38,659 nt of DNA from Myxococcota bacterium (lineage in GTDB: Bacteria > Myxococcota_A > Polyangia > Polyangiales > Sandaracinaceae), in NCBI GenBank assembly GCA_036149055.1, contig JAYZQJ010000148.1, positions 1-38,659 on the forward strand, read 5' to 3'. The number at the start of each line of letters is the position of its first letter. The stretch's first letter is position 1. Of the stretch, positions 893 through 30,573 are shown piece by piece. The notes beneath the pieces are model-generated. The model was not told the origin of the DNA, ran no database searches, and was given only the letters and a program-made list of their open reading frames with translations. Made by a program: the position numbers and the translations under genes.

Positions 893-1702
893 TTACACGA
901 CGCGCCGCGGGATTCCGTCGGCCGACCGAGGCGGGGTGCGGCGCCGGTAGGCCTCGTAGAGGAGCAGGCTCCCGGCGACGGCGACGTTGAGCGAATCGAG
1001 GCCGGGCTCCATCGGGATGCGGACCATGCGGTCGCAGGCCGCCCGCAGCTCCGGGCCGAGCCCGCGCCGCTCCTCCCCGAAGGCGACGGCGCAGCGCCCG
1101 GCGAAGGGCTCGCTCCGGAAGTCCCGGGCCGCCTCCGCGCTCGCGCCGACCACCGTCACGTCCCGCGCCCAGCGCCCGAAGCCGGCGAGGGTCGCGCGAT
1201 GCACCGGGAGCGTGAAGACCGCGCCCATGCTCGCCCTCACCACCCGCGGATCGAAGGGATCGACCGCGTCGCCGAGCAGCACCAGGCCGTCGACGCCGGT
1301 CGCCCGCGCGGTGCGCAGCAAGGTGCCGAGGTTGCCGGGCGAGCGCACCTTCTCGACGACCAGGAAGAGCGAGCCGTCGCGCGGCAGCCGGCGCCAGCGG
1401 GGGCGCACCACCCCGATCAGCCCGTCCGGGGAGGCGCGCGCGCTGAGCGCCGACATCTCGGCCTTCGAGAGGCGCGTGACCGGGGCGTCGAGCCCGCGCA
1501 CGAGCCGTCGCGCGGTGGCGCCGCGGCAGAGCGACGGGCACCACAGGAGGCCCTCGATCCGCAGCCGCGCCTCGAGGGCGCGCCGGACGAAGCCGACGCC
1601 GTCGGCGACCGCGAGGCCGGTGGCGTCGCGAGCGGCCCGGTCGGCGAGGAGCCGCGCGGTGAGCGCGGGCAGGGAGGTGGAGGAGAGAGGCGCCTCCGTC
1701 AT
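893..1702 (-). CDS. TrmH/SpoU-family RNA 2'-O-methyltransferase
   Basis: SPOUT motifs VRSPGNLGTLLRTA, VRASMGAVF, FGEERRGL and IPMEPGLDSLNVAVAGSLLLYE. Confidence 0.92.
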   Translation of the reverse strand: MTEAPLSSTSLPALTARLLADRAARDATGLAVADGVGFVRRALEARLRIEGLLWCPSLCRGATARRLVRGLDAPVTRLSKAEMSALSARASPDGLIGVVRPRWRRLPRDGSLFLVVEKVRSPGNLGTLLRTARATGVDGLVLLGDAVDPFDPRVVRASMGAVFTLPVHRATLAGFGRWARDVTVVGASAEAARDFRSEPFAGRCAVAFGEERRGLGPELRAACDRMVRIPMEPGLDSLNVAVAGSLLLYEAYRRRTPPRSADGIPRRVV

Positions 1703-1748
1703 CGGGACGGGAGGGCAGCCTCCGGGGTGAGAGAGGAGAGGTCGTGGT

Positions 1749-2552
1749 TCATCGGGGAGCGGTGGTGAGGAACGCCATGGCGAAGATGAGCGCGTAGGCC
1801 AGGAACGCGCCGCCGAACAGGACGACGCGGTAGATCAGGGTAGCGCCGAGCGCCCACTCGGTGCTGCAGCGGTGGGTCTCGCGGACGCCGATCGTCTCGA
1901 GGGTCAGCATCCAGAAGAGGCCGAAGAAGCCGGCCAGCGGCACGAAGCTCCAGACGTAGGGCGCGTTCGCGTACGAGACCGCGCGGAGCGTGTCCTCGAA
2001 CGAGCCTCGGGTGCGCTTGAAGACCGCGAGGAACGCGTGCGCGCAGGCGCCCGCGATGACGATGTTGAGCAGCGCGTTCGGCGGCCCGATGAGGAGCGCC
2101 AGCGGGCTCAGCCCGGCGAAGAAGCAGCCGTAGAGGCCGAGGAAGCCGCCGATCGCCTCGCCGTCCGGGATGACGACGGCCGCGACGCCGCCGCCCAGCG
2201 CCATCAGGAGGCCGGTCACCACGTACGTCAGCATCAGCCCGATGGTCGACGAGAGCACCCCGTGGGCCACCGCCGAGAAGCTGCTCGGGGCCGTCGTCGG
2301 CGTCCGGTAGAAGCGCTTCGGCTCGAGCATGGCGAGCCTCACCGTGCTCCAGTAGCTCTTCCAGTTGCCGAGCTCCTTGCGCCGCTCCCAGGGGATCGGC
2401 TCGGCCAGCCCCCCGGCGGCGCACGCGCGACAGACCTCGCGCTCCGGCAGGCTCGAGAAGACGCAGTCCGGGCAGCCGAAGGTGCCGCAGCGGCTGCAGG
2501 TGAAGGTGGCCTCGGCCTCGTGGACGCCGCAGAGGGCGCCCGGCGGGATCAG
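1749..2552 (-). CDS. YIP1-family membrane protein with N-terminal B-box-like Cys/His zinc finger (start uncertain)
   Basis: Distal part of the 553-aa ORF: CGVHEAEATFTCSRCGTFGCPDC..CRAC, IPWERR, then about five hydrophobic helices. The start is placed at a CTG overlapping the upstream TGA. Confidence 0.75.
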   Translation of the reverse strand: MIPPGALCGVHEAEATFTCSRCGTFGCPDCVFSSLPEREVCRACAAGGLAEPIPWERRKELGNWKSYWSTVRLAMLEPKRFYRTPTTAPSSFSAVAHGVLSSTIGLMLTYVVTGLLMALGGGVAAVVIPDGEAIGGFLGLYGCFFAGLSPLALLIGPPNALLNIVIAGACAHAFLAVFKRTRGSFEDTLRAVSYANAPYVWSFVPLAGFFGLFWMLTLETIGVRETHRCSTEWALGATLIYRVVLFGGAFLAYALIFAMAFLTTAPR

Positions 2553-3013
2553 AACTTCCCCGTCACCGACAGGAAGGTCATCTTGTCGTTCGTCTCGCGC
2601 AGGCGGGACGAGAGCGTCTTCACGAAGTTCCACAGAATCTCGTAGGCCAGATCCTTGTCCAGAAAGAGCAGGTCTTCCAGCGCGCTCTTCGTCAGGACCA
2701 GGAGGCGGCAGCGTTCGTGCACCCGCGCGTCCGCGCTGCGCGGGAAGTCGTCGATGAGGGACATCTCGCCGAAGGCGGCGCCGGCCCCCAGAACCGCCAG
2801 GGCCTCCTCCCCCATTCCGGAGACCTCGCGGCTGATGCGCACCTTCCCGTCGAGGATGAGGTACAGCTTGTCGCCCACCTCGCCCTCCTTGAAGATGATG
2901 TCGCCCAGCCGGTAGCTCTCCTCCGAGCAGATCGCCGCGATGCGGGCGATGCCGTCCGGGTGGATGCCCGCGAAGAGCTGGACCTTCGAGAGCGTCTCGG
3001 CGACGTCGGCCAT
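2549..3013 (-). CDS. Cyclic nucleotide-binding domain protein (Crp-like, no HTH)
   Basis: Motifs IFKEGEVGDKLYLILDGKVRI and FGEMSLIDDFPRSADA. Confidence 0.92.
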   Translation of the reverse strand: MADVAETLSKVQLFAGIHPDGIARIAAICSEESYRLGDIIFKEGEVGDKLYLILDGKVRISREVSGMGEEALAVLGAGAAFGEMSLIDDFPRSADARVHERCRLLVLTKSALEDLLFLDKDLAYEILWNFVKTLSSRLRETNDKMTFLSVTGKF

Positions 3014-3058
3014 GGCTTCGGATGGTATCGAGCCCGCGCCGACGTCGCCAGATCGCGA

Positions 3059-4012
3059 TCACGACTCGGTGAGCTCGTTCTCCGCGAGCCAGCGCTCCGC
3101 CTCGATCGCGGCCATGCAGCCGGTGCCGGCGGCGGTGACCGCCTGGCGGAAGACGTGGTCCTGGACGTCGCCGCAGGCGTACACGCCCTCGAGGTTGGTC
3201 AGGGTCGAGTCGGGCTTGGTGATCAGGTAGCCGTTGTCGTCGGTGTCGAGCCAGTCGCGGAAGACCTTCGTGCTCGGGATGTGCCCGATCGCCACGAACA
3301 TGCCGGTGCAGGGGATGACCTTCTGCTCCTGGGTCTTCGTGTTCTGGACCTCGACCCCGGTGACCTCGCCCTTCTCGACGTCGAGCACCTTGGTCACCAC
3401 GGTGTCCCACTCGAAGTGGATCTTCGGGTTCTTGAAGGCGCGCTCCTGCATGATCTTCGAGGCGCGGAGCTCGTCCCGGCGGTGGATGACCGTGACCTTC
3501 TTGCAGAGGCCGGCGAGGTAGAGGGCCTCCTCCATCGCGGTGTCGCCGCCGCCGATGACGGTGACCTCCTGGTCGCGGAAGAAGTACCCGTCGCAGGTCG
3601 CGCAGGCGCTGACGCCGCGGTTCTTGAGGGCGTGCTCGCTGTCGAGCCCGAGCCAGCGGGCCGAGGCGCCGGTCGCGATGATGATCGCGTGGCCGACGTA
3701 CTCGTCGTCGCCGACGTAGACCTTGTAGGGGCGCTCCGAGAGGTCGACCCGGTCGACGTCCGCGGTGATCAGCTCGGTGCCGAAGCGCTCCGCCTGGTCG
3801 CGGAACTTCTTCATCATGTCCGGGCCGGTGACGCCCTCGGGGAAGCCCGGGTAGTTCTCCACGTCGGTGGTGAACATGAGCTGACCGCCAGGGATCATGC
3901 CGTCCATCATCTGCCCTTCGATGCAGAGCGGCTTGAGGTTCGCGCGGGCGGCGTAGATGGCGGCGGTGAGCCCGGCGGGGCCGGAACCGATGATGATGAC
4001 GTTGCGAGGCAT
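3059..4012 (-). CDS. trxB: Thioredoxin reductase
   Basis: IIGSGPAGLTAA, GGQL..TTDVENYPGF, CATCDG active site, GGGDTAMEEA; ATG at 4012. Confidence 0.97.
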   Translation of the reverse strand: MPRNVIIIGSGPAGLTAAIYAARANLKPLCIEGQMMDGMIPGGQLMFTTDVENYPGFPEGVTGPDMMKKFRDQAERFGTELITADVDRVDLSERPYKVYVGDDEYVGHAIIIATGASARWLGLDSEHALKNRGVSACATCDGYFFRDQEVTVIGGGDTAMEEALYLAGLCKKVTVIHRRDELRASKIMQERAFKNPKIHFEWDTVVTKVLDVEKGEVTGVEVQNTKTQEQKVIPCTGMFVAIGHIPSTKVFRDWLDTDDNGYLITKPDSTLTNLEGVYACGDVQDHVFRQAVTAAGTGCMAAIEAERWLAENELTES

Positions 4013-22717: not shown

Positions 22718-23461
22718 GGTCTCGACCGACAGCAGATCGTCGAGGTCGTCGCGAGGCGCCTCGCCGATCGCGCTCAGCACGAGGCGATAGCGGACGCCGT
22801 CGTGAGCGAAGCGGCTCACCCGCGACCTCAGCCAGCCGTCTCCGGCGAGCGACGCGCTCACCGCGTCGGGCGTGACCGAGTCGACCCGATGGCCGGCGCG
22901 CTCGAGGCGAGCGGCGATCTCGCGGGTGACGTCGGCGCCGGTGTCGTGCGCGAGGTCGAGCGTGAGCTGCGTTCCCTCCCCCTCCCACGCCCAGACCCGA
23001 TGCGCGTCGCGCCAGCGCGCGTCGCCGGCCGCGCGAGTCTCCTCCTCGAGCGAGGGGGATCGCGTCAGGCCTCGCTCCGTGGGGTCCGAGATCGAGAAGC
23101 CGAGGGTGGGGTGCGCCAGTCGGCCGTCCTCGACGCCGAGCGCTCCGGCGGCGGCGCCGCCGAGCGGGACCGGGCCCGCGGCCTGTGAAGACCACACCAC
23201 CAGCGCGATGAAGCCCGCGGCGATCGACGCGGACAGCGCTCCGGTGATCCGAGCCGCGGTCCGCGCGCCTCGCTCACCCAGCAGCGCGGCCGAGAACGCG
23301 AGCGCGCCCGCGATCCAGGCCGCCCACATCGCGCCGCTCACGATCGAGCCGGGCGCCCAGGGGCTCGACGCGGCGACCGCCAGCGAGGTGAGCATCACCG
23401 GCGCGGCGGCGAGCGATCCCCACCCGAGGGCGCGCGCGTAGCGCATGACCCACTCGGGCAC
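22697..23461 (-). CDS. Hypothetical membrane protein
   Basis: 254-aa ORF with three N-terminal hydrophobic helices; convergent with tlyA. Confidence 0.6.
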   Translation of the reverse strand: MPEWVMRYARALGWGSLAAAPVMLTSLAVAASSPWAPGSIVSGAMWAAWIAGALAFSAALLGERGARTAARITGALSASIAAGFIALVVWSSQAAGPVPLGGAAAGALGVEDGRLAHPTLGFSISDPTERGLTRSPSLEEETRAAGDARWRDAHRVWAWEGEGTQLTLDLAHDTGADVTREIAARLERAGHRVDSVTPDAVSASLAGDGWLRSRVSRFAHDGVRYRLVLSAIGEAPRDDLDDLLSVETSDALEE

Positions 23462-23469
23462 GATCAGAG

Positions 23470-23540
23470 CTCCGGCGGCTGGATTCGAACCAACATAGAC
23501 GGATCCAAAGTCCGCAGTCCTACCATTGGACGACGCCGGA
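23470..23540 (-). tRNA. tRNA-Gln(TTG), canonical
   Basis: Acceptor TCCGGCG/CGCCGGA + G73; D arm GTCC-AATGGTA-GGAC; anticodon loop CT-TTG-GA; T loop TTCGAAT. Confidence 0.95.
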
Positions 23541-23587
23541 AACGCTGCGGAGGATAGTACACGCGCCGGTCGCGTCGAGCGGCCTCA

Positions 23588-23659
23588 TGCCTCCCGCCAG
23601 GTTCGAACTGGCTTCTCCCGGTTACGACGCGGGTGCGTTACCGATCACGCTCGAGAGGC
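23588..23659 (-). tRNA. tRNA-Thr(CGT), atypical (last array member, downstream of the Ro60 gene)
   Basis: GCCTCTC/GGGAGGC acceptor; GCGT-GATCGGTA-ACGC; anticodon loop GT-CGT-AA with a C.C mismatch at 31-39; GCCAG-TTCGAAC-CTGGC. Confidence 0.75.
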
Positions 23660-23757
23660 ACGGTCGCCGCGACCGCTCGCCAACGTCGCGAGCGGCCGCG
23701 GGGCCCGGAGCTCCGAGGAGCTCTATTTGGGTGGATGGGTGAGTGGTGGAAGAAGAT

Positions 23758-25302
23758 CTACTGGCCGCGGATGACGTCCACCCAGTGCTGCGCGCCGTCG
23801 GCGCCCTGGGCGAACGCCGCGACCACGTCGAACACCTGGTCGGAGAAGCCCCCGACGTTCAGGATGTCCGGCGAGTCCGGCGCCTGAGAGTGGCCGTACG
23901 GCTGCACGTCCACGCAGACCAGACGCGCCTTCGGGTTCCGGCTCTTCAGCTGGTTCCACTGACGCATGGTCTCCGTGGCGCCGTGACGACGTGCATCGAC
24001 CCACGACTGGTTGTCGCTGACGATCACCACCAGGTCGACCTTCCGCTGCTCCGCGTTCAGCTTCGCGAGCGGGGCCGAGACGTTGGTGCCGCCGCCTCCG
24101 ATGGAGGCGAGCTTCCGCGCGTTGGTCATCACGGTGTCCCGCGGCTCGAGCTCGACCGGCACGCAGCCGTGCTCGAAGGGGATGACCCCCGCCCGCGGGT
24201 TGTGCCGCACGAGCGCCGCCGCGAACAGCGCCGCGACGTCGACGCACTTCACCGCGCTCGTCGCGCCCTGCCGCCAGCCGGTGACCGGCGACTGCATCGA
24301 GCCGGAGACGTCCGGGCAGACGAACACGTGCCCGTCGATCCGCGGCACGTTCGCGATCGCGTGCTCCATCGCGTCGTGCAGCGCGCCCCGCACCTGCGCC
24401 GGGACCTTCGTCGCGCTGACGTAGGCCATCATGAGCTGGTACGGGAAGGCGCGCGCCTTCCGGACGAGCGACGGGTCCGAGAGCCGCGCCGCGATCCGCT
24501 CGGTCATCCCGTCCACCTCGAACACGCCGTGGCGCTGGAAGGTGTTCAGGTTCATCCGCGTCATCTGCCACGACGCGGACTCCGCGATCGCCGCCCACTC
24601 GGCCCGGCCGAGGCCGAGCGCGGTGAGCATCTGGAACGGCACGCTCGGCACCGCGTTGGACCGGTCACGCTTGTAGGCCTCGAAGGCCTTCACGAGCTCC
24701 GGCAGCGCGTCCCCGTCGTGCGCCTTGCCCAGGAGGTACCCGTAGAGCGCCCGCCGCGAGGCGGAGGCCGGCTTCGGGTGGACCATCTTGAGCACGTCGG
24801 CGAGCGACGGAGCGTTCCCGACCGAGCCCTTGAAGAGGTACTCGTCGGACCGCGAGCCGAGCCACCGGAGGATCTCCTTCTTCGGCCGCGTCCCGAGAGA
24901 CTTCCGGCCGACGGCGCCGCTCCGCATGATCTGCACGAAGGTCCGGAGCATCTTCACGTTGTCGACGACCTTCGGGAAGGCCGCCCCGAAGAGCTCGGGA
25001 TCGCGCACGGAGAGCACCGCGAGCAGGAGCGCCGGCATGTCCTTCATGTGCCCACGCTGGCGCGCGTACACCGCGCACTTGGCGAGGAACTCCGGGTCGA
25101 CCGCGAACGCGAGCTTCAGCACGACGTCGAGCTGCGTCTGCGCCGACGCGTAGAAGGTGCCGTTCAGGCAACCGGTGGCCGCGTACTGCCCGAGCGCGTG
25201 CTCCGGACCGAACGCGTAGGCCGGCCCACCCGCCTCGTTGACGAGATCCGGCTTGGGCAGGAGCTTGCCGACGAACGACGCGAACAGGTTCTTGTTTGCC
25301 AT
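23758..25302 (-). CDS. rsr: Ro60/TROVE-domain RNA-binding protein with vWA domain (Rsr)
   Basis: N-terminal NEAGGPAY..L.QYAATGCLNGTFY; MTRMNLNTFQRHG; FPYQLMMAY; MIDAS motif CPDVSGSM, GGGTN, VSDNQSW, VGGFSDQVF. ATG at 25302 follows a GGAGGTG RBS (514 aa). Confidence 0.95.
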   Translation of the reverse strand: MANKNLFASFVGKLLPKPDLVNEAGGPAYAFGPEHALGQYAATGCLNGTFYASAQTQLDVVLKLAFAVDPEFLAKCAVYARQRGHMKDMPALLLAVLSVRDPELFGAAFPKVVDNVKMLRTFVQIMRSGAVGRKSLGTRPKKEILRWLGSRSDEYLFKGSVGNAPSLADVLKMVHPKPASASRRALYGYLLGKAHDGDALPELVKAFEAYKRDRSNAVPSVPFQMLTALGLGRAEWAAIAESASWQMTRMNLNTFQRHGVFEVDGMTERIAARLSDPSLVRKARAFPYQLMMAYVSATKVPAQVRGALHDAMEHAIANVPRIDGHVFVCPDVSGSMQSPVTGWRQGATSAVKCVDVAALFAAALVRHNPRAGVIPFEHGCVPVELEPRDTVMTNARKLASIGGGGTNVSAPLAKLNAEQRKVDLVVIVSDNQSWVDARRHGATETMRQWNQLKSRNPKARLVCVDVQPYGHSQAPDSPDILNVGGFSDQVFDVVAAFAQGADGAQHWVDVIRGQ

Positions 25303-25398
25303 GATGCACCTCCGTGTGGAGTGAAAGGCGCCGCGAGGGCGCGTGATAAGTCGCGTTCGCTGGGCTCCTCCCCGAGAGGAGCCGGGGTGCGAACGCGA

Positions 25399-25469
25399 AG
25401 CGACCGGTCGGAGTCGAACCGACACTGCGGACCTGGCAAGCCCGAGTCCTACCGTTGGACCACGGTCGC
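25399..25469 (-). tRNA. tRNA-Gly(GCC)
   Basis: GCGACCG/CGGTCGC + U73; GTCC-AACGGTA-GGAC; TT-GCC-AG; GTCGG-TTCGACT-CCGAC. Confidence 0.9.
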
Positions 25470-25473
25470 GAGA

Positions 25474-25544
25474 CGCCGCGTACGGAAATCGAATCCGTCT
25501 CACTCGGGAGACAACCGAGCTGCATCCCAGATGCACAACGCGGC
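25474..25544 (-). tRNA. tRNA-Asp(GTC), atypical
   Basis: GCCGCGT/ACGCGGC + G73; TGCA-TCTGGGA-TGCA; CTCGG-TT-GTC-TC-CCGAG; ACGGA-TTCGATT-TCCGT. Confidence 0.85.
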
Positions 25545-25550
25545 AGAAGA

Positions 25551-25583
25551 TGGAGCGCATCGGAGTCGAACCGATCACGCCCT
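25551..25583 (-). ncRNA. tRNA-Ala-like minihelix or tRNA remnant (acceptor + T arm only)
   Basis: AGGGCGT-G-ATCGG-TTCGACT-CCGAT-GCGCTCC-A gives G3.U70 and A73, with no D or anticodon arm. Confidence 0.55.
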
Positions 25584-25590
25584 TCGCTGA

Positions 25591-25661
25591 AGCGATCGAC
25601 GGGAGTTGCACCCGTGTCTCCGGCATGGGAGGCCGGCGTCCTGCTGCTGGACGACGATCGC
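25591..25661 (-). tRNA. tRNA-Gly(CCC), atypical elbow
   Basis: GCGATCG/CGATCGC + U73; GTCC-AGCAGCA-GGAC; CCGGC-CT-CCC-AT-GCCGG; ACGGG-TGCAACT-CCCGT. Confidence 0.82.
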
Positions 25662-25696
25662 GAAGGCGAGCCCCTACGCGAGAGGCATTCGCGGCA

Positions 25697-25781
25697 TGGA
25701 GAGCGGAAGAGTCGAACTCCACACCCCGGAGGGTGCGCACCCGCTAGCAACGGGGCTCGATCCCGGACCGATTCACTCTCC
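25697..25781 (-). tRNA. tRNA-Ser(GCT), long variable arm
   Basis: GGAGAGT/GCTCTCC acceptor; loop TT-GCT-AG; variable stem CACCC/GGGTG; T loop TTCGACT. Confidence 0.8.
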
Positions 25782-25786
25782 TGAAG

Positions 25787-25869
25787 CGGAAGGAGGAGGT
25801 CACGCTCCCCACACCTGTCGGTGCGCACCGTTTTCGAGACGGGCTCGGCCCTCGGCCAATTCTCCTTCC
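25787..25869 (-). tRNA. tRNA-Ser(CGA), atypical T loop
   Basis: GGAAGGA/TCCTTCC + G73; loop CT-CGA-AA; variable arm CACC-GACA-GGTG; T loop AGCGTGA. Confidence 0.75.
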
Positions 25870-25878
25870 GGGAGAAGA

Positions 25879-25997
25879 GCAGCGACGAGTGGTGCGAAGA
25901 CGTGTTCCCGCGGTCCTGCCCTTGGACGACCGCCGAGGCGGGCCGGAGTCGAACCGGCATCTGCGGGGTGAGTTGTAGTCTTCGCGGCATTCGCTGC
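25879..25997 (-). ncRNA. Y RNA (YrlA-like, permuted tRNA-like domain), copy 4
   Basis: Terminal stem GCAGCGA-ATGCC-GCGAAGAC / GTCTTCGC-ACCACTCG-TCGCTGC encloses a T arm (GCCGG-TTCGACT-CCGGC), a loop-closed acceptor (CCGC-CTCG-GCGG) and then a D arm (GTCC-AAGGGCA-GGAC). Confidence 0.85.
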
Positions 25998-26035
25998 GCC
26001 ATTCGTGCGAAACGCGCTCGCTCCCTCGAGAGCGA

Positions 26036-26122
26036 CGGAAGATGGAGGTCACGCTCCCCACCCCTGGAACCAGGGGCGCGCCGGCTTCCAACCGGGCTCG
26101 GCCCTCGGCCGATTCACCTTCC
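26036..26122 (-). tRNA. tRNA-Ser(GGA), atypical T loop
   Basis: GGAAGGT/ATCTTCC + G73; loop TT-GGA-AG; variable stem CCCCTG/CAGGGG; T loop AGCGTGA; clear paralog of the Ser(CGA) gene. Confidence 0.75.
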
Positions 26123-26183
26123 AGCTCGCGCGTGGGGCGAGGGGCGACCCCGAGGCCGACCCCTCACCCGCCACGCGCCGCCC

Positions 26184-26705
26184 TCAGCTCGGGCCGGTCG
26201 TCCACCAGACCCAGTCCTTCCACGGGTCCGGCAGGCTGCGACCGACGCCCAGCTTGGGCAGCCCGGCCGGGAGCGCCTTGGGGCGCACCGGCTGGCTCAG
26301 CAGCTTCATGCCGGCCTGCTCGGGCGTCCGGTTGCCCTTTCGCCCGTTGCAGTCGCGGCACGCGCTGACGATGTTCTCCCAGGACGTGCGGCCCCCCTGA
26401 GAGCGGGGCTTCACGTGGTCGAACGTCAGCTCCCGCGCCGGCAGCTGCTCGCCGCAGTACTGGCAACGGAAGTCGTCGCGGGTGAGCACGTTCACGCGGG
26501 AGAAGCGAACCTTCGGCTCGCGGTGCTTGATCGCGCGGGTCAGCCGAACGACCGCGGGCTTCGGCAGCGCCGTGCTCACCGAGCGGATGAGCTCGTCATA
26601 GGTCTCGACGACCTCCACCTTCCCCGTGAAGGACATCAGGATGGCCTTCTGCCAGCCGACGATCCGGTGTGGCAAGTAGCCTTGGGTCAGGACCAACGTG
26701 TCCAT
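26184..26705 (-). CDS. HNH endonuclease (McrA-like, zinc-binding)
   Basis: FSRVNVLTRDDFRCQYCG..LTFDHVKPRSQGGRTSWENIVSACRDCNGRKG; ATG at 26705 (173 aa). Confidence 0.93.
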   Translation of the reverse strand: MDTLVLTQGYLPHRIVGWQKAILMSFTGKVEVVETYDELIRSVSTALPKPAVVRLTRAIKHREPKVRFSRVNVLTRDDFRCQYCGEQLPARELTFDHVKPRSQGGRTSWENIVSACRDCNGRKGNRTPEQAGMKLLSQPVRPKALPAGLPKLGVGRSLPDPWKDWVWWTTGPS

Positions 26706-26795
26706 GGGAGCACCTTCTTTCGGGGTGATGCGGGCGGAGGGAGGCGCTCGGCGCCGAACGCGACGAGCGGTGACGGAGGGGAGCGAGGGTTCTGC

Positions 26796-26870
26796 GGCGA
26801 ACGGGGAGATTCGAACTCCCACTGAGCGACTTCTGAGGCCGCTGCCTCTGCCGAGTTGGGCTACGTTCGC
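26796..26870 (-). tRNA. tRNA-Leu(CAG) with short variable loop
   Basis: GCGAACG/CGTTCGC acceptor; GCGGC-CT-CAG-AA-GTCGC; 5-nt variable loop TCAGT; GGGAG-TTCGAAT-CTCCC. Confidence 0.85.
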
Positions 26871-27057
26871 GAAACTTTCGTGGCGGGAGGTGGTCGGCTG
26901 CCCGGGGCATCCAGGCGAAGCGGGTGGAGCCTTCGCCCACCGGGCAGCCGACCGACCTTCACGCTCGAGTCCCACCGGACCGTGGCCACCCACCGGTCGC
27001 CCGCGAGGCTCGCGCTCGCGGTCGCCCCTCGTCCGAGGAGCGCGGCGTGGTCGGGGA

Positions 27058-27129
27058 CGCTCTCGCCTGGACTCGAACCAGGAACGCGGGCTTCGGAGGC
27101 CCGAGTGATCTCCGTTTCACTACGAAAGC
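27058..27129 (-). tRNA. tRNA-Arg(CCG)
   Basis: GCTTTCG/CGAGAGC + G73; GTGA-AACGGAGA-TCAC; CGGGC-CT-CCG-AA-GCCCG; CCTGG-TTCGAGT-CCAGG. Confidence 0.9.
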
Positions 27130-27199
27130 ATGTCCCCGTCGTCCGGCGGTGCGTCCAGCGCGGGGGGATGCGCCAGCGGCACGTTCGATCCGACGGAGA

Positions 27200-27271
27200 T
27201 CGGAGAGGGAGGAATCGAACCTCCGTGGTCTGGTTCCCGAAACCAGTGCGTGGCCACTACGCTACACTCCG
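27200..27271 (-). tRNA. tRNA-Pro(CGG)
   Basis: CGGAGTG/CTCTCCG + A73; GCGT-AGTGGCC-ACGC; CTGGT-TT-CGG-GA-ACCAG; GGAGG-TTCGATT-CCTCC. Confidence 0.88.
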
Positions 27272-27511
27272 CTTGCTGGAGGGCCTGAACGCAGGCCCTC
27301 CCCCCATTGGGCAAAGCGCCAATGGGGCCCCCCTCCCGACTCCGTCGGAGCTTCGCGCTTCGCGCTCGCTCCGCGTCCCCAGCGGCGGGGCGCTGGGGCC
27401 CTGCGGCTCGCGCTAGGCGCTTCGCGCCTCGCTGGCCGCCTTTCTGTTGTCGCCGACTTGGTTGTCGTGGGCCGCGCTCGGCGCTTTGCGCTTCGCTGGC
27501 CACCTTTCTGT
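27272..27511. repeat. Palindromic dispersed repeat copy B with an internal 38-bp duplication
   Basis: Inverted homolog of 12-223; 27410-27447 and 27474-27511 match at 34/38 nt. Confidence 0.65.
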
Positions 27512-27538
27512 CGTGGGGGACTCCGGGCCGGGCGGGAG

Positions 27539-27611
27539 CACCCTCGGCAGGAGTCGAACCTGCATCCTCCCGATTCGTAGTCGGGTGCTCATCCATTCGA
27601 GCTTCGAGGGT
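27539..27611 (-). tRNA. tRNA-Arg(ACG)
   Basis: ACCCTCG/CGAGGGT + G73; GCTC-GAATGGAT-GAGC; CCCGA-CT-ACG-AA-TCGGG; GCAGG-TTCGACT-CCTGC. Confidence 0.9.
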
Positions 27612-27615
27612 AGAG

Positions 27616-27684
27616 AGTGCCGAGAGGGAGTCGCGCCCTCGCTCGCCGGGTTGCAGCCAGCGACGCTCGCTCGAGCTTCGGCAC
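27616..27684 (-). tRNA. tRNA-Cys(GCA)-like, reduced D loop
   Basis: GTGCCGA/TCGGCAC + U73 (Cys discriminator); GCTC-GAGC-GAGC; loop CT-GCA-AC; GAGGG-CGCGACT-CCCTC. Confidence 0.7.
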
Positions 27685-27688
27685 GTAG

Positions 27689-27766
27689 TGGTCGACGAGG
27701 GAGCCGTGAGGAGTGCCCGGTCGGGCGTCGATTGACAGTCGATGTACTCACGGCGGCATTCGACCA
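27689..27766 (-). ncRNA. Short Y RNA without tRNA-like domain, copy 3
   Basis: TGGTCGA-ATGCC-GCCGTGAG-TACA...CTCACGGC-TCCCTCG-TCGACCA: same terminal helix motif as the other copies, with two small internal hairpins (78 nt). Confidence 0.72.
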
Positions 27767-27767
27767 G

Positions 27768-27840
27768 TGATCGAGGCGGGAGACGATCCCGCGACCTCCG
27801 GCGTGTCGGGCCGGCGCTCTGCCTGCTGAGCTACTCGATC
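27768..27840 (-). tRNA. tRNA-Val(GAC), atypical
   Basis: GATCGAG/CTCGATC + A73; GCTC-AGCAGGCA-GAGC; CCGGC-CC-GAC-AC-GCCGG (C33); GCGGG-ATCGTCT-CCCGC. Confidence 0.82.
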
Positions 27841-27864
27841 GTGTCTCCAGCGGAGACGAGAGAG

Positions 27865-27972
27865 GCAGCGACGAGGGGTGCGAAGACGCAACGCTTCTCC
27901 GCCCGCAGGATGGACGGAATCGGAGTCGAACCAATGTAAAGCAACCATGTAGTCTTCACGGGCATTCGCTGC
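27865..27972 (-). ncRNA. Y RNA with T arm and closed acceptor stem but no D arm, copy 2
   Basis: GCAGCGA-ATGCCC-GTGAAGAC-TACA..ATTGG-TTCGACT-CCGAT-TCCGTCC(loop)GGGCGGA..GTCTTCGC-ACCCCTCG-TCGCTGC. Confidence 0.8.
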
Positions 27973-27980
27973 GGAGAGGA

Positions 27981-28109
27981 GATGGCGACGAGGGGTGCGA
28001 GGACATTGCTCTAGCCACTGAGCTACGTCCCGATGACTCGAGACGGCCGGATTCGAACCGGCGACCCTTCGTGTTGCAGACGATGTAGTCCTCACGGGCA
28101 TTCGCCATC
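27981..28109 (-). ncRNA. Y RNA (YrlA-like, permuted tRNA-like domain), copy 1
   Basis: GATGGCGA-ATGCCC-GTGAGGAC-TACA..GCCGG-TTCGAAT-CCGGC-CGTCTCGA(GTCA)TCGGGACG-TA-GCTC-AGTGGCTA-GAGC..GTCCTCGC-ACCCCTCG-TCGCCATC. Confidence 0.88.
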
Positions 28110-28111
28110 AG

Positions 28112-28186
28112 GTGGACCGACGGGACTCGCACCCGCTCATGCCTGGGTCACGGCCAGGCGCCTCGACGACTTCGGCTTCGGTCCAC
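28112..28186 (-). tRNA. tRNA-His(GTG), atypical T loop
   Basis: 8-bp acceptor GTGGACCG/CGGTCCAC (G-1:C73 His determinant); CCTGG-CC-GTG-AC-CCAGG; GCGGG-TGCGAGT-CCCGT. Confidence 0.83.
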
Positions 28187-28190
28187 ACAG

Positions 28191-28261
28191 CGCCTCGAGC
28201 TGGACTCGCACCAGCACCTCCCGGATTTCACCCGGGCGCTCGACTGTCGAGCTGTCGAGGC
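28191..28261 (-). tRNA. tRNA-Phe(GAA), atypical
   Basis: GCCTCGA/TCGAGGC; GCTC-GACAGTC-GAGC; CCCGG-GT-GAA-AT-CCGGG; GCTGG-TGCGAGT-CCAGC. Confidence 0.8.
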
Positions 28262-28266
28262 AGGAG

Positions 28267-28339
28267 CGCCGCCGGAAGGATTCGAACCTTCGACCCCCCG
28301 GTTAACAGCCGGGTGCTCTACCGTTGAAGCTACGGCGGC
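28267..28339 (-). tRNA. tRNA-Asn(GTT)
   Basis: GCCGCCG/CGGCGGC + G73; GCTT-CAACGGTA-GAGC; CCCGG-CT-GTT-AA-CCGGG; GAAGG-TTCGAAT-CCTTC. Confidence 0.93.
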
Positions 28340-28384
28340 GTTCGGACCCCGGGGCGCCTGCCACGCGCCCCGGAGGAGACCTGA

Positions 28385-28413
28385 TTTTCAAGGAGCGGCC
28401 CTCGATGGAGGGC
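28385..28413 (-). promoter_or_regulatory. boxB-like hairpin followed by boxA-like antitermination sequence
   Basis: GCCCTC-CATC-GAGGGC hairpin, then GCTCCTTGAAAA, which resembles the rrn boxA consensus (GCTCTTT[A/G]A[C/A]A). Confidence 0.55.
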
Positions 28414-28415
28414 GC

Positions 28416-28486
28416 AGCCGCGCCGAGGAGTCGCACCTCGACCTCCCGGTTCAGAGCCGGACGTCCTGCTGTTGGACCAGCGCGGC
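28416..28486 (-). tRNA. tRNA-Gln(CTG), atypical
   Basis: GCCGCGC/GCGCGGC; GTCC-AACAGCA-GGAC; TCCGG-CT-CTG-AA-CCGGG; CGAGG-TGCGACT-CCTCG. Confidence 0.8.
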
Positions 28487-28490
28487 GTGA

Positions 28491-28562
28491 TGAAGCGCCA
28501 GGGAGTTGCACCCCGATCGACCGGGTAAGAACCGGCTGCTCTGGCTGTTGAGCTAGCGCTCC
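28491..28562 (-). tRNA. tRNA-Lys(CTT), atypical elbow (first array member)
   Basis: GGAGCGC/GCGCTTC + A73; GCTC-AACAGCCA-GAGC; GCCGG-TT-CTT-AC-CCGGT; CGGGG-TGCAACT-CCCTG. Confidence 0.83.
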
Positions 28563-28599
28563 AGAAACGAAAAAAGCCGTCTGCGTGCAGGCAGACGGC
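28563..28599 (-). terminator. Intrinsic terminator (attenuator 2) immediately upstream of the first tRNA
   Basis: GCCGTCTGC-CTGCAC-GCAGACGGC-TTTTTTCGTTTCT; a competing GCAGACGG strand lies at 28635-28628. Confidence 0.85.
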
Positions 28600-28624
28600 C
28601 GGAAGAAGTCGCATTGATTCGACT

Positions 28625-28819
28625 TCACCGTCTGCGATGAATCTCCTGACCGTAGGTATCTGTCTGCGAAGAGATCGGATTGAGATGGGGTTCCGGACAT
28701 CCGCTCGCCAGGCGCAGGTCACCCGTCGAGCGAGCGAACGAGGCCGCCGCGCGTGAGGGGGTCGCCGGACGCCATCGCGGCCTGATGGCCGCCAAGGGCA
28801 TGAGGGGGGTGCGCTGCAT
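28625..28819 (-). CDS. Putative leader peptide 2 (64 aa)
   Basis: Ends CGC AGA CGG TGA exactly on the antiterminator strand; codon-diverse; no visible Shine-Dalgarno. Confidence 0.5.
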   Translation of the reverse strand: MQRTPLMPLAAIRPRWRPATPSRAAASFARSTGDLRLASGCPEPHLNPISSQTDTYGQEIHRRR

Positions 28820-28886
28820 GGGAGGGGAGACGTTCGAGGGGGCGAGAAGTTCCGTCGAGCTGGGATGAAGGGAGGGGAGGGGCGCG

Positions 28887-28926
28887 AGAAACGAAAAAGG
28901 CCGCCTCGGGGAGTCCCGGGGCGGCC
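28887..28926 (-). terminator. Intrinsic terminator (attenuator 1)
   Basis: GGCCGCCCCGGG-ACTC-CCCGAGGCGGCC-TTTTTCGTTTCT; same tail as attenuator 2; a competing GGGGCG strand lies at 28958-28953. Confidence 0.85.
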
Positions 28927-28957
28927 CAAATACGCGAAAAGCGTATGGATCTCGCCC

Positions 28958-29176
28958 CTATGGGATGCGCAGTTCCTGACGAAGGAAGCTCGGGAGCTTC
29001 CCGAACGACGAGCCGCGCTCGTCCGCGCAACGCAGCGGTCCGTGACCGCCGCACTGGCTATCGATCATGTCGATGTCGATGCCGCAGAGACCGAAGGTGG
29101 TCTCCCGGCTCACACCGTACCGGTTCAGCGCTCTGGCTGACCGGTCGCCCTTCGGCGTCTGATGCGTCCACGACAT
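28958..29176 (-). CDS. Putative leader peptide 1 (72 aa, near-leaderless)
   Basis: ATG 9 nt after the -10 box; all 20 amino acids by codon 33; TAG stop overlaps the antiterminator strand. Confidence 0.62.
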   Translation of the reverse strand: MSWTHQTPKGDRSARALNRYGVSRETTFGLCGIDIDMIDSQCGGHGPLRCADERGSSFGKLPSFLRQELRIP

Positions 29177-29185
29177 GATGTGAAG

Positions 29186-29214
29186 GTCTTAACCCAGGTC
29201 CAGACCCGTGTCAA
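29186..29214 (-). promoter_or_regulatory. Putative sigma70-type promoter of the tRNA/Y RNA/Ro60 operon
   Basis: TTGACA (29214-29209)-17 nt-TAAGAC (29191-29186), preceded by a T-rich tract in otherwise very GC-rich DNA. Confidence 0.65.
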
Positions 29215-29253
29215 AGAAAAAGTGATGTCGATGACCAGAAAGTTGGTCGGACA

Positions 29254-30573
29254 TCAATCGCGGTTCTGTCGACGAAGGTGATCCAGGGCTTCGAGGAACA
29301 CTCGCGCTTTGAGCTCGGTCTCCTCGATCTCTCGCTCCGGATCGCTCGCGCTCACGAGGCCGCCGCCCGCGAAGTAGGTCGCGCTCTCTCCGGAGATCAC
29401 GGCGGTTCGGATGGCGACCGCGAGCGAGACACCGCCCGCGCGATCGACGTATCCGAGCGCGCCCGTGTAGACGCCGCGGGCGCACGGCTCCTCGGCCTCG
29501 ATGAGCTCCATCGCGCGCAGCTTCGGCGTGCCGGTGATGCTGCCCGGCGGGAAGGTGGCCTCGAGGATCGCGCGCAGATCGATCTCGGGCCGCGTCCGGC
29601 ACGCGACCGTGCTGACCAGGTGGCTCAGGCCGCGGAACGGCTCCACCCGCAACGGCGCGTGCACACGCACGCTCCCCGTCTCGGCCACGCGCGAGAGATC
29701 GTTGCGCATGAGATCCACGATCATCGCGTGCTCGGCGCGCTCCTTGTCGTCGCGGGTCAGCGTCTCCGCCTCCGCCTCGTCGTCGCGGCCGCTCCGGGCG
29801 ATGGTCCCCTTGATCGGGCTCGTCCAGAGGCTGCGACCCGCGCGGTCCCAGCGGAGGAAGCGCTCCATGGTCCGGCCGAGCACGGCGTGGTCGGGGCGCT
29901 CGAGGTACATGCCGAGCGGCACCGGGCTCGCCTCGCGCATCGCGCGCCAGAGGGCGAGGGGGCCGCCCGCGTAGGGCGCGGTCCACTGGCGCGCGAGGTT
30001 GACCTGGTAGATCTCGCCGGCCGCGATCGCGTCGAGCGCGCGCTCGATGGCGCGGCGGTGGTCGGCGCGGGGCGGCACCGACGCGGCTCCCGCCTTCGCG
30101 CGGCACGCTGGCCGGGCGGAGGCTCGCTCGACCCGCGCTCGCAGCGCCTCCGCGTCGCGGCCGAGCGCCCATCCCCGGCCGGCCTCGCGGTCCACGGCGA
30201 TCAGGCTCTCGTACCGACCGAGGCACACCACCGGCAGCGCGCCGCGGGGATGCCGCGCGGGGGCTCGCAGGCCGAGGCGGCCCGCCTCCGACCACGCGGC
30301 GTCGTACGCGATCCAGCCGATCCACCACGGGACCGCGCCGCGGTCGAGCGGAGCGCCGTCGATCGGCCCGGGCTCGCCCTCGAGCCCGTCGAAGGCGGCC
30401 CAGGGATCGTCGCCGAAGCGCGCGACGCGGGTCTCGACCGGGTCGCTCGCCAGGAACGTCCAGCGGCCCTCGGGGTGACCCGGCTCGCCGTCCAGCCAGA
30501 CCCGTCCACGCGGACCGAGCGCGTGGGCGATGGCGTCGAGCGGCGGGAGGCGCCGGAGGGGCAGGGCGCGCAC
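29254..30573 (-). CDS. Chorismate-binding enzyme, aminodeoxychorismate synthase/anthranilate synthase component I family (PabB-like)
   Basis: GEIYQVNLA, PIKGT, KERAEHAMIVDLMRNDLSRV, TFPPGSITGTPKLRAM, RGVYTGALG, AIRT, AGGGLV. Confidence 0.9.
   Translation of the reverse strand: MRALPLRRLPPLDAIAHALGPRGRVWLDGEPGHPEGRWTFLASDPVETRVARFGDDPWAAFDGLEGEPGPIDGAPLDRGAVPWWIGWIAYDAAWSEAGRLGLRAPARHPRGALPVVCLGRYESLIAVDREAGRGWALGRDAEALRARVERASARPACRAKAGAASVPPRADHRRAIERALDAIAAGEIYQVNLARQWTAPYAGGPLALWRAMREASPVPLGMYLERPDHAVLGRTMERFLRWDRAGRSLWTSPIKGTIARSGRDDEAEAETLTRDDKERAEHAMIVDLMRNDLSRVAETGSVRVHAPLRVEPFRGLSHLVSTVACRTRPEIDLRAILEATFPPGSITGTPKLRAMELIEAEEPCARGVYTGALGYVDRAGGVSLAVAIRTAVISGESATYFAGGGLVSASDPEREIEETELKARVFLEALDHLRRQNRD

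Follow-up and report, generated by a model that had tools for sequence, protein, structure and literature searches.

Why would a bacterial chromosome line up tRNA genes, Y RNAs, an HNH endonuclease gene and a gene for the Ro60 orthologue Rsr on one strand, behind what look like transcription attenuators? The question is raised by a stretch of 38.7 kb (38,659 nt, hereafter the window), which is contig C148 of the 9.9-Mb draft genome G000 (71% GC, 96% complete), from a host described as a marine myxobacterium. All features between 23587 and 29214 lie on the minus strand. The 18 tRNA genes serve 14 amino acids, and with them stand four Y RNAs, an HNH gene that is intact, and the Ro60/Rsr gene. 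A first-pass annotation made from the letters of the sequence had given this strand, gene order and content, and our analysis bears them out, with Ser-CGA as a weak member; the observation itself is real and was carefully described. The island joins two known kinds of locus, L-type (supernumerary) tRNA arrays with HNH genes and Ro60/Y RNA modules, and its most original element is a conserved leader with a stop-codon-aligned switch and a boxA. On balance, we favour reading the island as a chromosomal L-type array fused to a Ro60/Y RNA module in one minus-strand operon.

The tRNA genes were sought with ARAGORN at its default, 85% and 70% thresholds, and with the Rfam tRNA model (gathering score 29 bits). 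At default, ARAGORN reported 14 minus-strand tRNAs in the window and none on the plus strand; 13 are among the 18 claimed, and the fourteenth is a tRNA-Gln (UUG) at 23469-23540, outside the claimed range. The covariance model, a check that the first-pass annotation had proposed, recovered 12 claimed genes and Gln-UUG at or above the gathering score, and laxer filters added tRNA-His (38.9 bits). The 85% threshold added Cys-GCA, Ser-GGA, Ser-GCT and His, among 25 calls of which seven were spurious (five antisense to real tRNAs, two inside rsr), and Ser-CGA was called at 70% only, amid many false calls. Recovery is thus good for 17 of the 18 genes and weak for one. The fourteenth call, tried as an array member, was rejected: it is a housekeeping gene, 99% identical in two relatives' genomes (G001 and G004) and 90% in two others (G003 and G019), and it lies away from rsr in G004, G003 and G019. 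Found by ARAGORN at default and by Rfam, it marks the border of the island and is not part of the module.

In the order of the minus strand, the genes found both by ARAGORN at default and by Rfam are tRNA-Lys (CTT, 28489-28563), tRNA-Gln (CTG, 28416-28486), tRNA-Asn (GTT, 28266-28339, 91% identical to the array copy of G001), tRNA-Phe (GAA, 28190-28261), tRNA-Val (GAC, 27767-27840), tRNA-Arg (ACG, 27538-27611), tRNA-Pro (CGG, 27200-27271), tRNA-Arg (CCG, 27055-27130), a 75-nt tRNA with the Leu anticodon CAG (26796-26870), tRNA-Gly (CCC, 25591-25661), tRNA-Gly (GCC, 25399-25469) and the divergent tRNA-Thr (CGT, 23587-23660), the last gene of the module. Interspersed with them are tRNA-His (GTG, 28112-28185), tRNA-Cys (GCA, 27615-27684), tRNA-Ser (GGA, 26034-26123) with an odd T-arm, tRNA-Ser (CGA, 25788-25865), which is the weakest of the 18, tRNA-Ser (GCT, 25697-25781), which has a tRNA-Sec-type match of 31 bits in Rfam, and tRNA-Asp (GTC, 25472-25545), called by ARAGORN only, Rfam giving no report. 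The spacing is tight, 11 of the 24 neighbouring gene pairs being separated by just 0-6 nt. Eighteen closely spaced tRNA genes on one strand within 5 kb, with isoacceptor duplicates elsewhere in the genome, are the marks of an L-type array.

Most array anticodons recur elsewhere in the genome, and the array genes score lower on the Rfam model (39-68 bits) than most other tRNAs of the genome (60-77 bits); a canonical Thr-CGT copy on contig C282 reaches 72.7 bits against 43.9 for the array Thr. Asn-GTT and Arg-ACG are found in the array only, within an assembly that is 96% complete. The same-genus genome G001 holds a canonical tRNA-Asn outside its array, 99% identical to that of another genus, so the missing non-array Asn of G000 is probably an assembly gap. 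By sequence, the array tRNAs are taken to be extra, divergent copies, directly so for Asn only through the canonical copy of G001; the earlier description of the set as a backup stands on this copy and on the lower array scores. The array anticodons read codons ending in G or C, and therefore fit the host with its 71% GC. Absence of an encoded CCA had also been pointed out. It holds for the window (0 of 14 tRNAs) and is not specific to the array, as none of 38 tRNAs elsewhere in the genome encodes it either, and we rejected it as a special trait.

The four Y RNAs lie among these tRNA genes, on the rsr strand and at most 3 kb from rsr. Three of them match the Rfam YrlA model (RF02553): Y RNA 1 at 27979-28108 (52.6 bits, E 5.2e-10), Y RNA 2 at 27862-27972, with a degenerate D-arm (29.4 bits, E 0.0027), and Y RNA 4 at 25876-25997 (57.6 bits, E 1.9e-11). 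All three stay below the gathering score of 69 bits, which homologues in two relatives exceed (74.3 bits in G008, 70.6 bits in G001), and all three are also identified as YrlA type by alignment and structure. An alignment of eight Y RNAs has in common a Ro-binding stem, a T-arm, an acceptor-like hairpin and a D-arm, with compensatory changes in 17 of 26 predicted pairs. A lineage model (R1) built from these eight copies detects Y RNA 3 (27686-27766; 34.9 bits, E 6.8e-6), which was not in the training set and is short, being a Ro-binding stem that lacks a complete tRNA-like domain. Chen et al. (2014; PMC4201824) warn of tRNA-dimer artefacts among Y RNA candidates; the Y RNAs described here are not such artefacts, because the conserved stem is not tRNA sequence.

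Among the rsr loci of 18 relatives, Y RNAs are detected in 14 at E <= 0.01, none being found at that level in L024, L025, L032 and L037. A wider set of 80 loci of this Ro60 subfamily yields 239 Y RNAs by the lineage model, all on the rsr strand. Outside Sandaracinaceae they stand mostly in tandem downstream of rsr, so the interleaving of Y RNAs with tRNAs is a local arrangement. A short Y-RNA-like stem was also noticed just downstream of rsr in several loci (L022 6532-6594, L023 6187-6250, L026 6209-6295, L027 10534-10623, L031 10613-10677, L035 2409-2474 and L038 7863-7950); the window has tRNA-Thr at that place instead.

The rsr gene (23758-25302) follows a GGAGG ribosome-binding site and encodes 514 aa with the Pfam domains vWA_Ro60 (E 8e-20) and TROVE (E 6e-7). 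The protein aligns over its full length with Deinococcus radiodurans Rsr (PDB 2nvo; E 3.5e-23, residues 18-500), and also matches Ro60 of phage phiLo, human and Xenopus. Its metal site of the DxSxS type (D331, S333, S335, T406, D430) is invariant in 10 relatives. Rsr nevertheless reaches 82.3 of the 900 bits required by the NCBIfam equivalog NF041674 (RNA-bind_Rsr), and scores higher on the phage family PHROG 850 (139.5 bits). On these scores it is assigned to a divergent Ro60 subfamily. The HNH endonuclease gene (26184-26705; 173 aa) is intact, matches Pfam HNH_5 and HNH, and has PHROG 16726 as its best phage family (E 2.7e-34). Its product is 48% identical over the full length to the HNH protein of phage Mx1 (GenBank OR576727.2), and homologues are present in 10 of the 18 relatives' loci and in 21 of the 80 wider ones. 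Both the Rsr and HNH genes are intact across genera.

The first-pass annotation knew of no description of this combination, and its implied uniqueness did not survive comparison. Rsr occurs in 21 of 41 related genomes, 16 of them among the 24 of the same family, and ten of the 18 relatives' rsr loci have at least five tRNAs (up to 25), six have 1-4 and two have none, some of these loci being cut by contig ends. Another check it had proposed, synteny around Ro60 genes, shows the array regions of G000 and G001 to be syntenic, with the same flanking genes. The G001 array has additional Ala, Glu, Leu and Val tRNAs and a fifth Y RNA, and this comparison also settled the nature of an "Ala minihelix" at 25546-25590, formerly listed as an element of the operon. 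Rejected as a designed element, it is a deletion scar in which the 5' start of a Y RNA is joined to the 3' part of a tRNA-Ala(TGC): the deletion removed most of the fifth Y RNA and of the tRNA-Ala, both intact in G001.

In the wider scan (80 loci, 52-75% identity), at least five same-strand tRNAs are found in 22 loci, an HNH gene in 21 and both in 19. The loci with arrays belong to other Polyangia, to acidobacterial Pyrinomonadaceae and Blastocatellia, described as soil bacteria, and to one betaproteobacterium; most alpha- and betaproteobacterial loci of the subfamily are without an array. Acidobacterial arrays reach 24-33 tRNAs in most loci with enough flank, and one of them (L060) has 12, with an HNH gene between Cys and Phe. 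The combination thus recurs across Sandaracinaceae, other Polyangia and Pyrinomonadaceae, and phage Mx1 has tRNAs, HNH and Ro60. Arrays are spread over Myxococcota, Acidobacteriota and one betaproteobacterium, yet a FastTree phylogeny of 96 Rsr sequences clusters by phylum, in compact groups (6 label changes against a shuffled mean of 32.6), with the window nested in Sandaracinaceae and Mx1 on a long branch with support 19.

Some records deserve a remark of their own. The close relatives have titles naming the family Sandaracinaceae, in Myxococcota. Three loci titled Mycobacterium sp. (L063), Heliomicrobium sp. (L068) and Clostridia (L070) have an Rsr that nests in Inquilinus or acidobacterial clades, and L070 has an acidobacterial leader as well; they are probably mislabelled or mis-binned contigs rather than transfers. 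At L077 (Albitalea terrae), 18 same-strand tRNAs at 1019-3800 stand about 4-7 kb upstream of rsr with a terminator ahead, and an HNH homologue was not detected at that locus.

The array tRNAs also have peculiar elbows. A G at T-loop position 55 was counted in Lys (T-loop TGCAACT), Gln-CTG, Phe and Gly-CCC, and reading the sequence adds His and Cys (CGCGACT). The T-loop of this class reads TGCRA or CGCGA, and by eye the D-loops of these tRNAs are without the usual GG. Such T-loops occur in 4 of 14 tRNAs of the window, 13 of 138 in relatives' loci and 7 of 46 from other Polyangia, in 2 of 413 acidobacterial array tRNAs, and in none of 26 from Mx1 or of 41 elsewhere in G000. The T-loop of tRNA-Val (ATCGTCT) resembles a swap of the usual T54-A58 pair, and its 5-mer ATCGT was seen in four tRNAs of relatives' loci and in one of Albitalea.

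The tRNA with the Leu anticodon lacks a long variable arm. Homologous short Leu-anticodon tRNAs of 73-76 nt are found in the window, in G001, in a further relative (G018) and in phage Mx1; outside the window, such tRNAs lie at L021 10032-10290, L036 2325-2400 and L049 4700-4774, 15036-15109 and 15937-16010. A D-arm GCCCAAT..GGCAGAGGC is common to those of the chromosomal arrays and of the phage. The discriminator base of the window copy (at 26796) is C in the assembly and A in G001 and in RNA contigs of three runs.

The likeness to Mx1 extends to further genes. The phage has a Ro60-like gene of 48.6% identity, the HNH gene, and an array of about 17-20 tRNAs including short Leu tRNAs of 74-75 nt beside HNH. 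Unlike in the window, these genes are spread over about 16 kb among phage open reading frames (ORFs), and in the 19.6-kb region no Y RNA was found by Rfam (E <= 0.01) or by the lineage model, a lone partial match (E 0.0085) falling on a tRNA. The text of the phage announcement gives a GC content of 55.5% and mentions only 22 tRNAs (PMC10720576).

The island could then be a phage-derived and largely selfish L-array, an Mx1-like module that landed by tRNA-Gln(UUG) and persists through spread of its HNH or through neutrality, its terminators silencing costly tRNAs and no stress function being provided to the host. Besides the shared content with Mx1 and the better fit of Rsr to a phage family than to the NCBIfam equivalog, this reading would explain the turnover of content (the extra genes of G001; the scar and a repeat insertion in G000) and the position of the island against a housekeeping tRNA gene. 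It also accords with the literature, where L-arrays are considered to spread horizontally and to be cryptic for the most part, HNH being an element that mobilises them (PMC8421152). We consider it unlikely all the same. The clustering of Rsr by phylum, the nesting of the window in Sandaracinaceae and the conserved synteny speak for long residence; the anticodons suit the GC-rich codon usage of the host and not the 55.5% GC of Mx1 (PMC10720576); Rsr and HNH remain intact across genera; and the island is strongly present in RNA libraries. A scan of the window ORFs for domains found no integrase or other phage gene in the 38.7 kb. An elaborate leader with a boxA, described below, has moreover been kept in two phyla.

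The fused, single operon that we favour would start at a sigma-70-like promoter at 29186-29214, with a -35 box TTGACA (29214-29209), a 17-nt spacer and a -10 box TAAGAC (29191-29186). Both hexamers are invariant between G000 and G001, the spacer between them being different. The predicted start lies at about 29178-29180, and a first leader ORF (ORF1, 28958-29176) begins 9 nt past the -10 box and would be nearly leaderless with such a start. A generic scan for promoters and terminators returned no sigma-70 promoter, missing this one because its -10 box ends in C, and three terminator-like sites against 2.4 expected by chance; it caught the second of the terminators described here (T2) and not the first (T1). 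The scan being near chance level, the leader features rest on conservation.

ORF1 has 72 codons and ends in Pro-TAG. The frame stays open in both G000 (72 aa) and G001 (86 aa), where start and stop contexts are the same; it has a coding-like GC content at third codon positions (GC3, 0.82 and 0.78), and its peptide belongs to no family in Pfam, NCBIfam or PHROG. Of 11 Polyangia loci, 10 have an ORF, 50-118 codons long, that closes at the corresponding stop, and in 7 of the 11 the last codon is Pro. The G of the ORF1 stop codon is the first base of the antiterminator strand of the switch T1 (28889-28958), which consists of this strand X (GGGGCG, 28958-28953), a middle hairpin (28946-28930), the 5' arm (28926-28915) and 3' arm (28911-28899) of a terminator, and a U-tract (28898-28889). 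The stretch is conserved between G000 and G001. When the RNA is truncated before the 3' arm, X is predicted to pair with the 5' arm in 10 of the 11 Polyangia loci, an energy that shuffles of X rarely match; at L023 the automatic truncation point failed. X also pairs better with the partner of its own locus than with swapped ones (-14.8 kcal/mol, the swapped value being -13.3; 207 of 10000 permutations do as well), in narrow windows, as the middle hairpin confounds wider ones. Folding and partner swap were used instead of a count of pairs, since a MAFFT alignment of nine T1 elements was out of register for the helices. From T1 to the first tRNA there are only 46-154 nt in L028, L033, L031 and L022, which leaves little room for another promoter.

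A second switch follows in the window. ORF2 (28625-28819; 64 codons, ending HRRR-TGA) remains an open frame in three genomes, G000 (64 aa), G001 (69 aa) and G018, all with the same C-terminus and stop position. Its last codons are the upstream copy GCAGACGG (28635-28628) of T2 (28565-28635), which continues with a hairpin (28626-28605), the terminator 5' arm GCCGTCTGC (28599-28591), the 3' arm GCAGACGGC (28584-28576) and a U-tract (28575-28565) ending 2 nt before tRNA-Lys (28563). T2 is present in the same three genomes; its block is near-identical in G000 and G001, and G018 has an identical A-to-G change in both copies. The antiterminator is the predicted minimum-energy fold of the truncated RNA in G000, G001 and G018, a result that 25, 2 and 4 of 300 shuffles reach, respectively.

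Within the array, between tRNA-Gln and tRNA-Asn, a boxA-like site CCTTGAAAATC (28383-28393) is followed by a hairpin. Its motif C[CT]TTGAAAA[TC]C has this single occurrence in the 9.9-Mb assembly of G000. The assembly of G000 did not yield its rRNA leader. The comparison with rRNA (rrn) operons comes from G015, where 8 Mb contain just two occurrences: TTGAAAACCGAAG belongs to the array, and TTGAAAACCGAAT lies on the same strand as the 16S rRNA gene and about 210 nt upstream of it. The motif is therefore present in an rRNA operon leader of the lineage, and the site that had been called boxA-like is upheld as one of rrn type.

Comparable leaders stand before acidobacterial arrays. In all 15 examined (L057, L058, L060, L061, L064, L069, L070, L073, L075, L076, L080, L082, L084, L088 and L097), a four-strand switch with near-invariant strands lies 3-4 nt downstream of the stop of an ORF of 64-95 codons and is followed by a boxA and a second terminator; the related motif TTGA[CTA]AA[CT][CT]GAA occurs in these leaders. 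The type of stop varies (TAG, TGA, TAA) and its position is fixed. Together, switches with a stop codon so placed precede arrays in 11 Polyangia and 15 acidobacterial loci. The acidobacterial leader peptides (64-95 aa) mostly have an Arg-rich end, for instance DRRQLQN; ORF2 of the window ends HRRR.

In attenuators of the trp/his type and in the leader-ORF control of antibiotic-resistance genes, a leader ORF is combined with an intrinsic terminator, and the position of the ribosome decides whether a competing antiterminator is available. The window has the same anatomy according to the predicted folds, with mutually exclusive antiterminators positioned to the ORFs. It differs from trp/his-type attenuators in that the leader ORFs are long (50-118 codons over the Polyangia loci) with no evident run of regulatory codons, that the stop codon and not an internal codon is aligned with the switch, and that the output consists of RNA genes and an RNA-surveillance protein. 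The attenuation claimed at first is thus supported, as to its anatomy, by the conserved promoter and by two terminator/antiterminator leaders with the ORF stop on the switch, the generic scan contributing no information. The companion claim that no neighbouring regulator is involved agrees with what we found: there is no adjacent regulator gene, no DNA-binding regulator domain among the window ORFs scanned (a TrcR homologue elsewhere in the genome being outside that search), no sigma-54 motif TGGCA-N6-TTGC in 23301-29500, and no RtcB, RtcA or sigma-54-activator domain in the 26 window ORFs scanned.

The RNA evidence consists of assembled contigs, which do not give true ends, strand or level, and a contig over two genes is not proof of one transcript. 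In one study, with two seawater metatranscriptome runs, the mean word depth of the contigs over 23399-29162 is 28-266. For the upstream gene (29175-30500) it is 0-1.4, and this near-zero value argues against DNA carry-over. Contigs of four runs from two studies stop at 29127, 29162, 29167 and 29169, near the predicted start, a weak hint as these are ends of contigs only. A 1760-nt contig (27403-29162) crosses T1 and T2, and another of 2805 nt (23399-26203) runs from the Ser genes through rsr and Thr to Gln-UUG. In the second study (run X18), a contig at 28901-29169 with a depth of 14.1 ends at the foot of the T1 stem and downstream pieces have depths of 0.4-7, which would fit partial termination at T1. 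Gaps in contig cover, like the low-depth pieces of runs X17 and X18, do not count as signs of absence. The claim of one transcript is accordingly strengthened by contigs bridging both terminators, the near-uncovered upstream gene and the conserved promoter, and it is held back by the nature of contigs, which alone are not proof.

Might the island be an ordinary, constitutive housekeeping tRNA operon, with T1 and T2 as the terminators of small upstream genes? Asn-GTT and Arg-ACG, found in the array only within the 96%-complete assembly, speak for this reading, as does the good representation of the island in RNA libraries. We hold this to be very unlikely. The canonical Asn of G001 stands outside the array and is 99% identical to that of another genus; the array tRNAs are divergent, some with non-canonical elbows seen in none of 41 tRNAs elsewhere; and the content varies from 0 to 25 tRNAs among relatives. 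Terminators of separate upstream genes also agree poorly with a T2 that ends 2 nt before tRNA-Lys, with RNA contigs bridging both terminators and with conserved antiterminator folds.

For the gated operon, the mechanism that we propose runs as follows. Transcription most likely starts at about 29178-29180 from the TTGACA/TAAGAC promoter, and the polymerase would meet two intrinsic terminators in series, T1 then T2. Each would be disabled by an upstream strand that mimics its 3' arm and lies at or within the last codons of a leader ORF. In the geometry of the window, a ribosome reaching the stop codon would cover the mimic strand and let the terminator form; a ribosome held earlier in the 64-72-codon ORF would leave this strand free, and RNA polymerase would read on. 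The rrn-type boxA probably makes elongation processive through some 5 kb of structured and mostly untranslated RNA. The precursor would then be cut by tRNA-processing enzymes, presumably RNase P and RNase Z, to give the four Y RNAs and 18 divergent tRNAs matched to the codons of the host, and the HNH and Rsr proteins would be translated from the same RNA. If starvation, ribosome inhibitors, damage to tRNAs or their depletion make translation falter, the cell would provide itself with a spare tRNA set, and Ro60-Y RNA particles made at the same time might guide exonucleases to structured RNA that is damaged, as they do in Deinococcus and Salmonella.

Several points weigh against this mechanism. 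All RNA evidence comes from contigs, and in the two metatranscriptomes their depth is similar on either side of T2, which may mean that the terminators leak or stood open in those samples. Internal promoters may exist. The coding signal of ORF2 is weak (GC3 0.73 and 0.65) and its translation uncertain, no Shine-Dalgarno sequence being seen ahead of it. The leader peptides show poor conservation, a GC content of 71% makes long open frames common, and no run of regulatory codons was seen in the leader ORFs. The acidobacterial stop precedes a strand whose masking favours readthrough, opposite in sign to the window; the ribosome model is therefore not uniform, and the direction of control, which we put forward provisionally, is not readable from sequence alone. 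Finally, charging and use of the array tRNAs are presumed; several of them have unusual elbows, and Leu-CAG carries C73 in the assembly.

Some of these points would be accommodated if the switches were real and sensed a small ligand, an uncharged or damaged tRNA, or a protein, the leader ORFs being chance frames or independent small genes. Poorly conserved peptides without obvious runs of regulatory codons, the weak signal of ORF2 and the different predicted signs in Polyangia and acidobacteria are all compatible with such sensing, and the near-invariance of switch strands in 15 acidobacterial leaders is what a binding site would produce. This explanation has trouble with a stop position fixed relative to the switch in 26 loci, where stop type and peptide vary, and with the coding-like GC3 of ORF1 and its nearly leaderless start at a conserved promoter. 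It also finds no help in Rfam, where a search of 28565-29180 gave no leader or riboswitch (best RcsR1, 25.4 bits against a gathering score of 60). We judge it a rather remote alternative.

The elements of the proposed mechanism accordingly carry different weights. With comparative data that are strong and RNA data that are weak, a single terminator-gated operon is a well supported prediction. Dependence of the leader switches on the ribosome is plausible and slightly favoured. A physiological role in stress rescue is more tentative, and would take the form of translation rescue or of protection against anticodon nucleases. At the speculative end, and improbable as it stands, lies a self-contained "translation emergency" operon of Polyangia and Pyrinomonadaceae: stop-codon-aligned switches would sense how far ribosomes advance on a long leader ORF, and rrn-type antitermination would co-express Ro60-Y RNA particles with remodelled spare tRNAs that escape tRNA-targeting nucleases, be they phage-triggered anticodon nucleases or competitor toxins. 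The remodelling would comprise the G55 elbows without a D-loop GG, the A54/U58 swap and a tRNA-Leu without its long arm. Ro60 particles would clear damaged housekeeping tRNAs, and a form of the module carried by Mx1 and similar phages would serve them as a counter-defence.

Parts of this locus have precedents. The trn operon of Anabaena PCC 7120 is a tRNA array induced by translational stress, with an adjoining HNH gene (Santamaria-Gomez et al. 2021, PMC8421152), and the same paper notes a link to RNA repair genes (rtcB); HNH genes also stand beside Mycobacterium tRNA array units (Morgado and Vicente 2018, PMC5966550). The window shares with these arrays dense, same-strand supernumerary tRNAs, isodecoder redundancy rather than new anticodons, and an HNH gene in or near the array, and its leader design suggests induction by stress as in Anabaena. 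It differs by Ro60 and four interleaved Y RNAs, TROVE going unmentioned in the main text of either paper (PMC8421152, PMC5966550), and its array is chromosomal and syntenic within the genus. In Anabaena the repressor TrcR acts on DNA repeats (PMC8421152); in the window, where the domain scan of ORFs found no adjacent repressor gene of this kind, control would apparently be exerted in cis by terminator/antiterminator leaders and a boxA.

As in bacterial Rsr loci with YrlA and YrlB, a Ro60 orthologue is accompanied by several same-strand Y RNAs with a Ro-binding stem and a tRNA-like domain (PMC4201824). Unlike Salmonella rsr-yrlBA-rtcBA (PMC7790460), the window has no rtcB, rtcA, RtcR or sigma-54 promoter, and unlike known Rsr modules its Y RNAs lie among real tRNA genes and its Rsr belongs to a divergent subfamily. 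Y RNAs beside Ro60 in bacteria and phages had been published by Chen et al., who discarded candidates overlapping tandem tRNA genes and list few YrlA RNAs in delta-proteobacteria (PMC4201824). A TROVE gene is found inside 20 of 29 archaeal tRNA gene clusters, with HNH nearby (Morgado and Vicente 2019, PMC6333295); those clusters differ in being mostly haloarchaeal, and Y RNAs and a leader go undescribed in what that source reports of them. A literature search covering neither two Ro60 reviews nor the supplements of Chen et al. found no published link of "tRNA array" with Ro60. No terminator switch ahead of a natural tRNA array was among the matches listed, which concern CRISPR-guide arrays. 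Searches on tRNA arrays in Myxococc* returned nothing relevant, and those on phage Mx1 with tRNA returned nothing.

Supernumerary tRNA arrays and bacterial Ro60/Y RNA have mostly been separate fields; in this island the two are physically joined, under a common control region that is conserved in two phyla and apparently acts in cis. Should the leaders read ribosome progress, a simple and testable route would connect failing translation with two coupled responses, spare tRNAs and RNA surveillance, and bacterial Ro60 would gain a clearer physiological context. The divergent elbows and the short tRNA-Leu are natural cases on which to test how tRNAs are recognised and how they resist toxins that cleave them. 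Much of such a locus escapes standard annotation, 4 of the 18 tRNAs and all four Y RNAs falling below default thresholds.

The direct neighbours of the island are a gene for a chorismate-binding enzyme and a hypothetical gene, and the surrounding genes are ordinary chromosomal ones (SSB, an FtsJ-like methyltransferase, the chorismate-binding enzyme, dnaK, rpsL/rpsG/fusA). Elsewhere in G000, a 71-nt tRNA with the anticodon GTA (Tyr) on contig C208 (24813-24883; L044 1490-1560) is closely similar to a second Asn-GTT tRNA of G001 (C27), and its anticodon could have changed or have been misread in sequencing. Inserted between Arg-ACG and Pro is a copy (27272-27440, minus strand) of a dispersed repeat, about 170 nt long, which does not belong to the module. 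The repeat has 205 BLAST matches across the G000 assembly, and the RNA contigs break at this place and continue differently; the array region of G001 has three copies.

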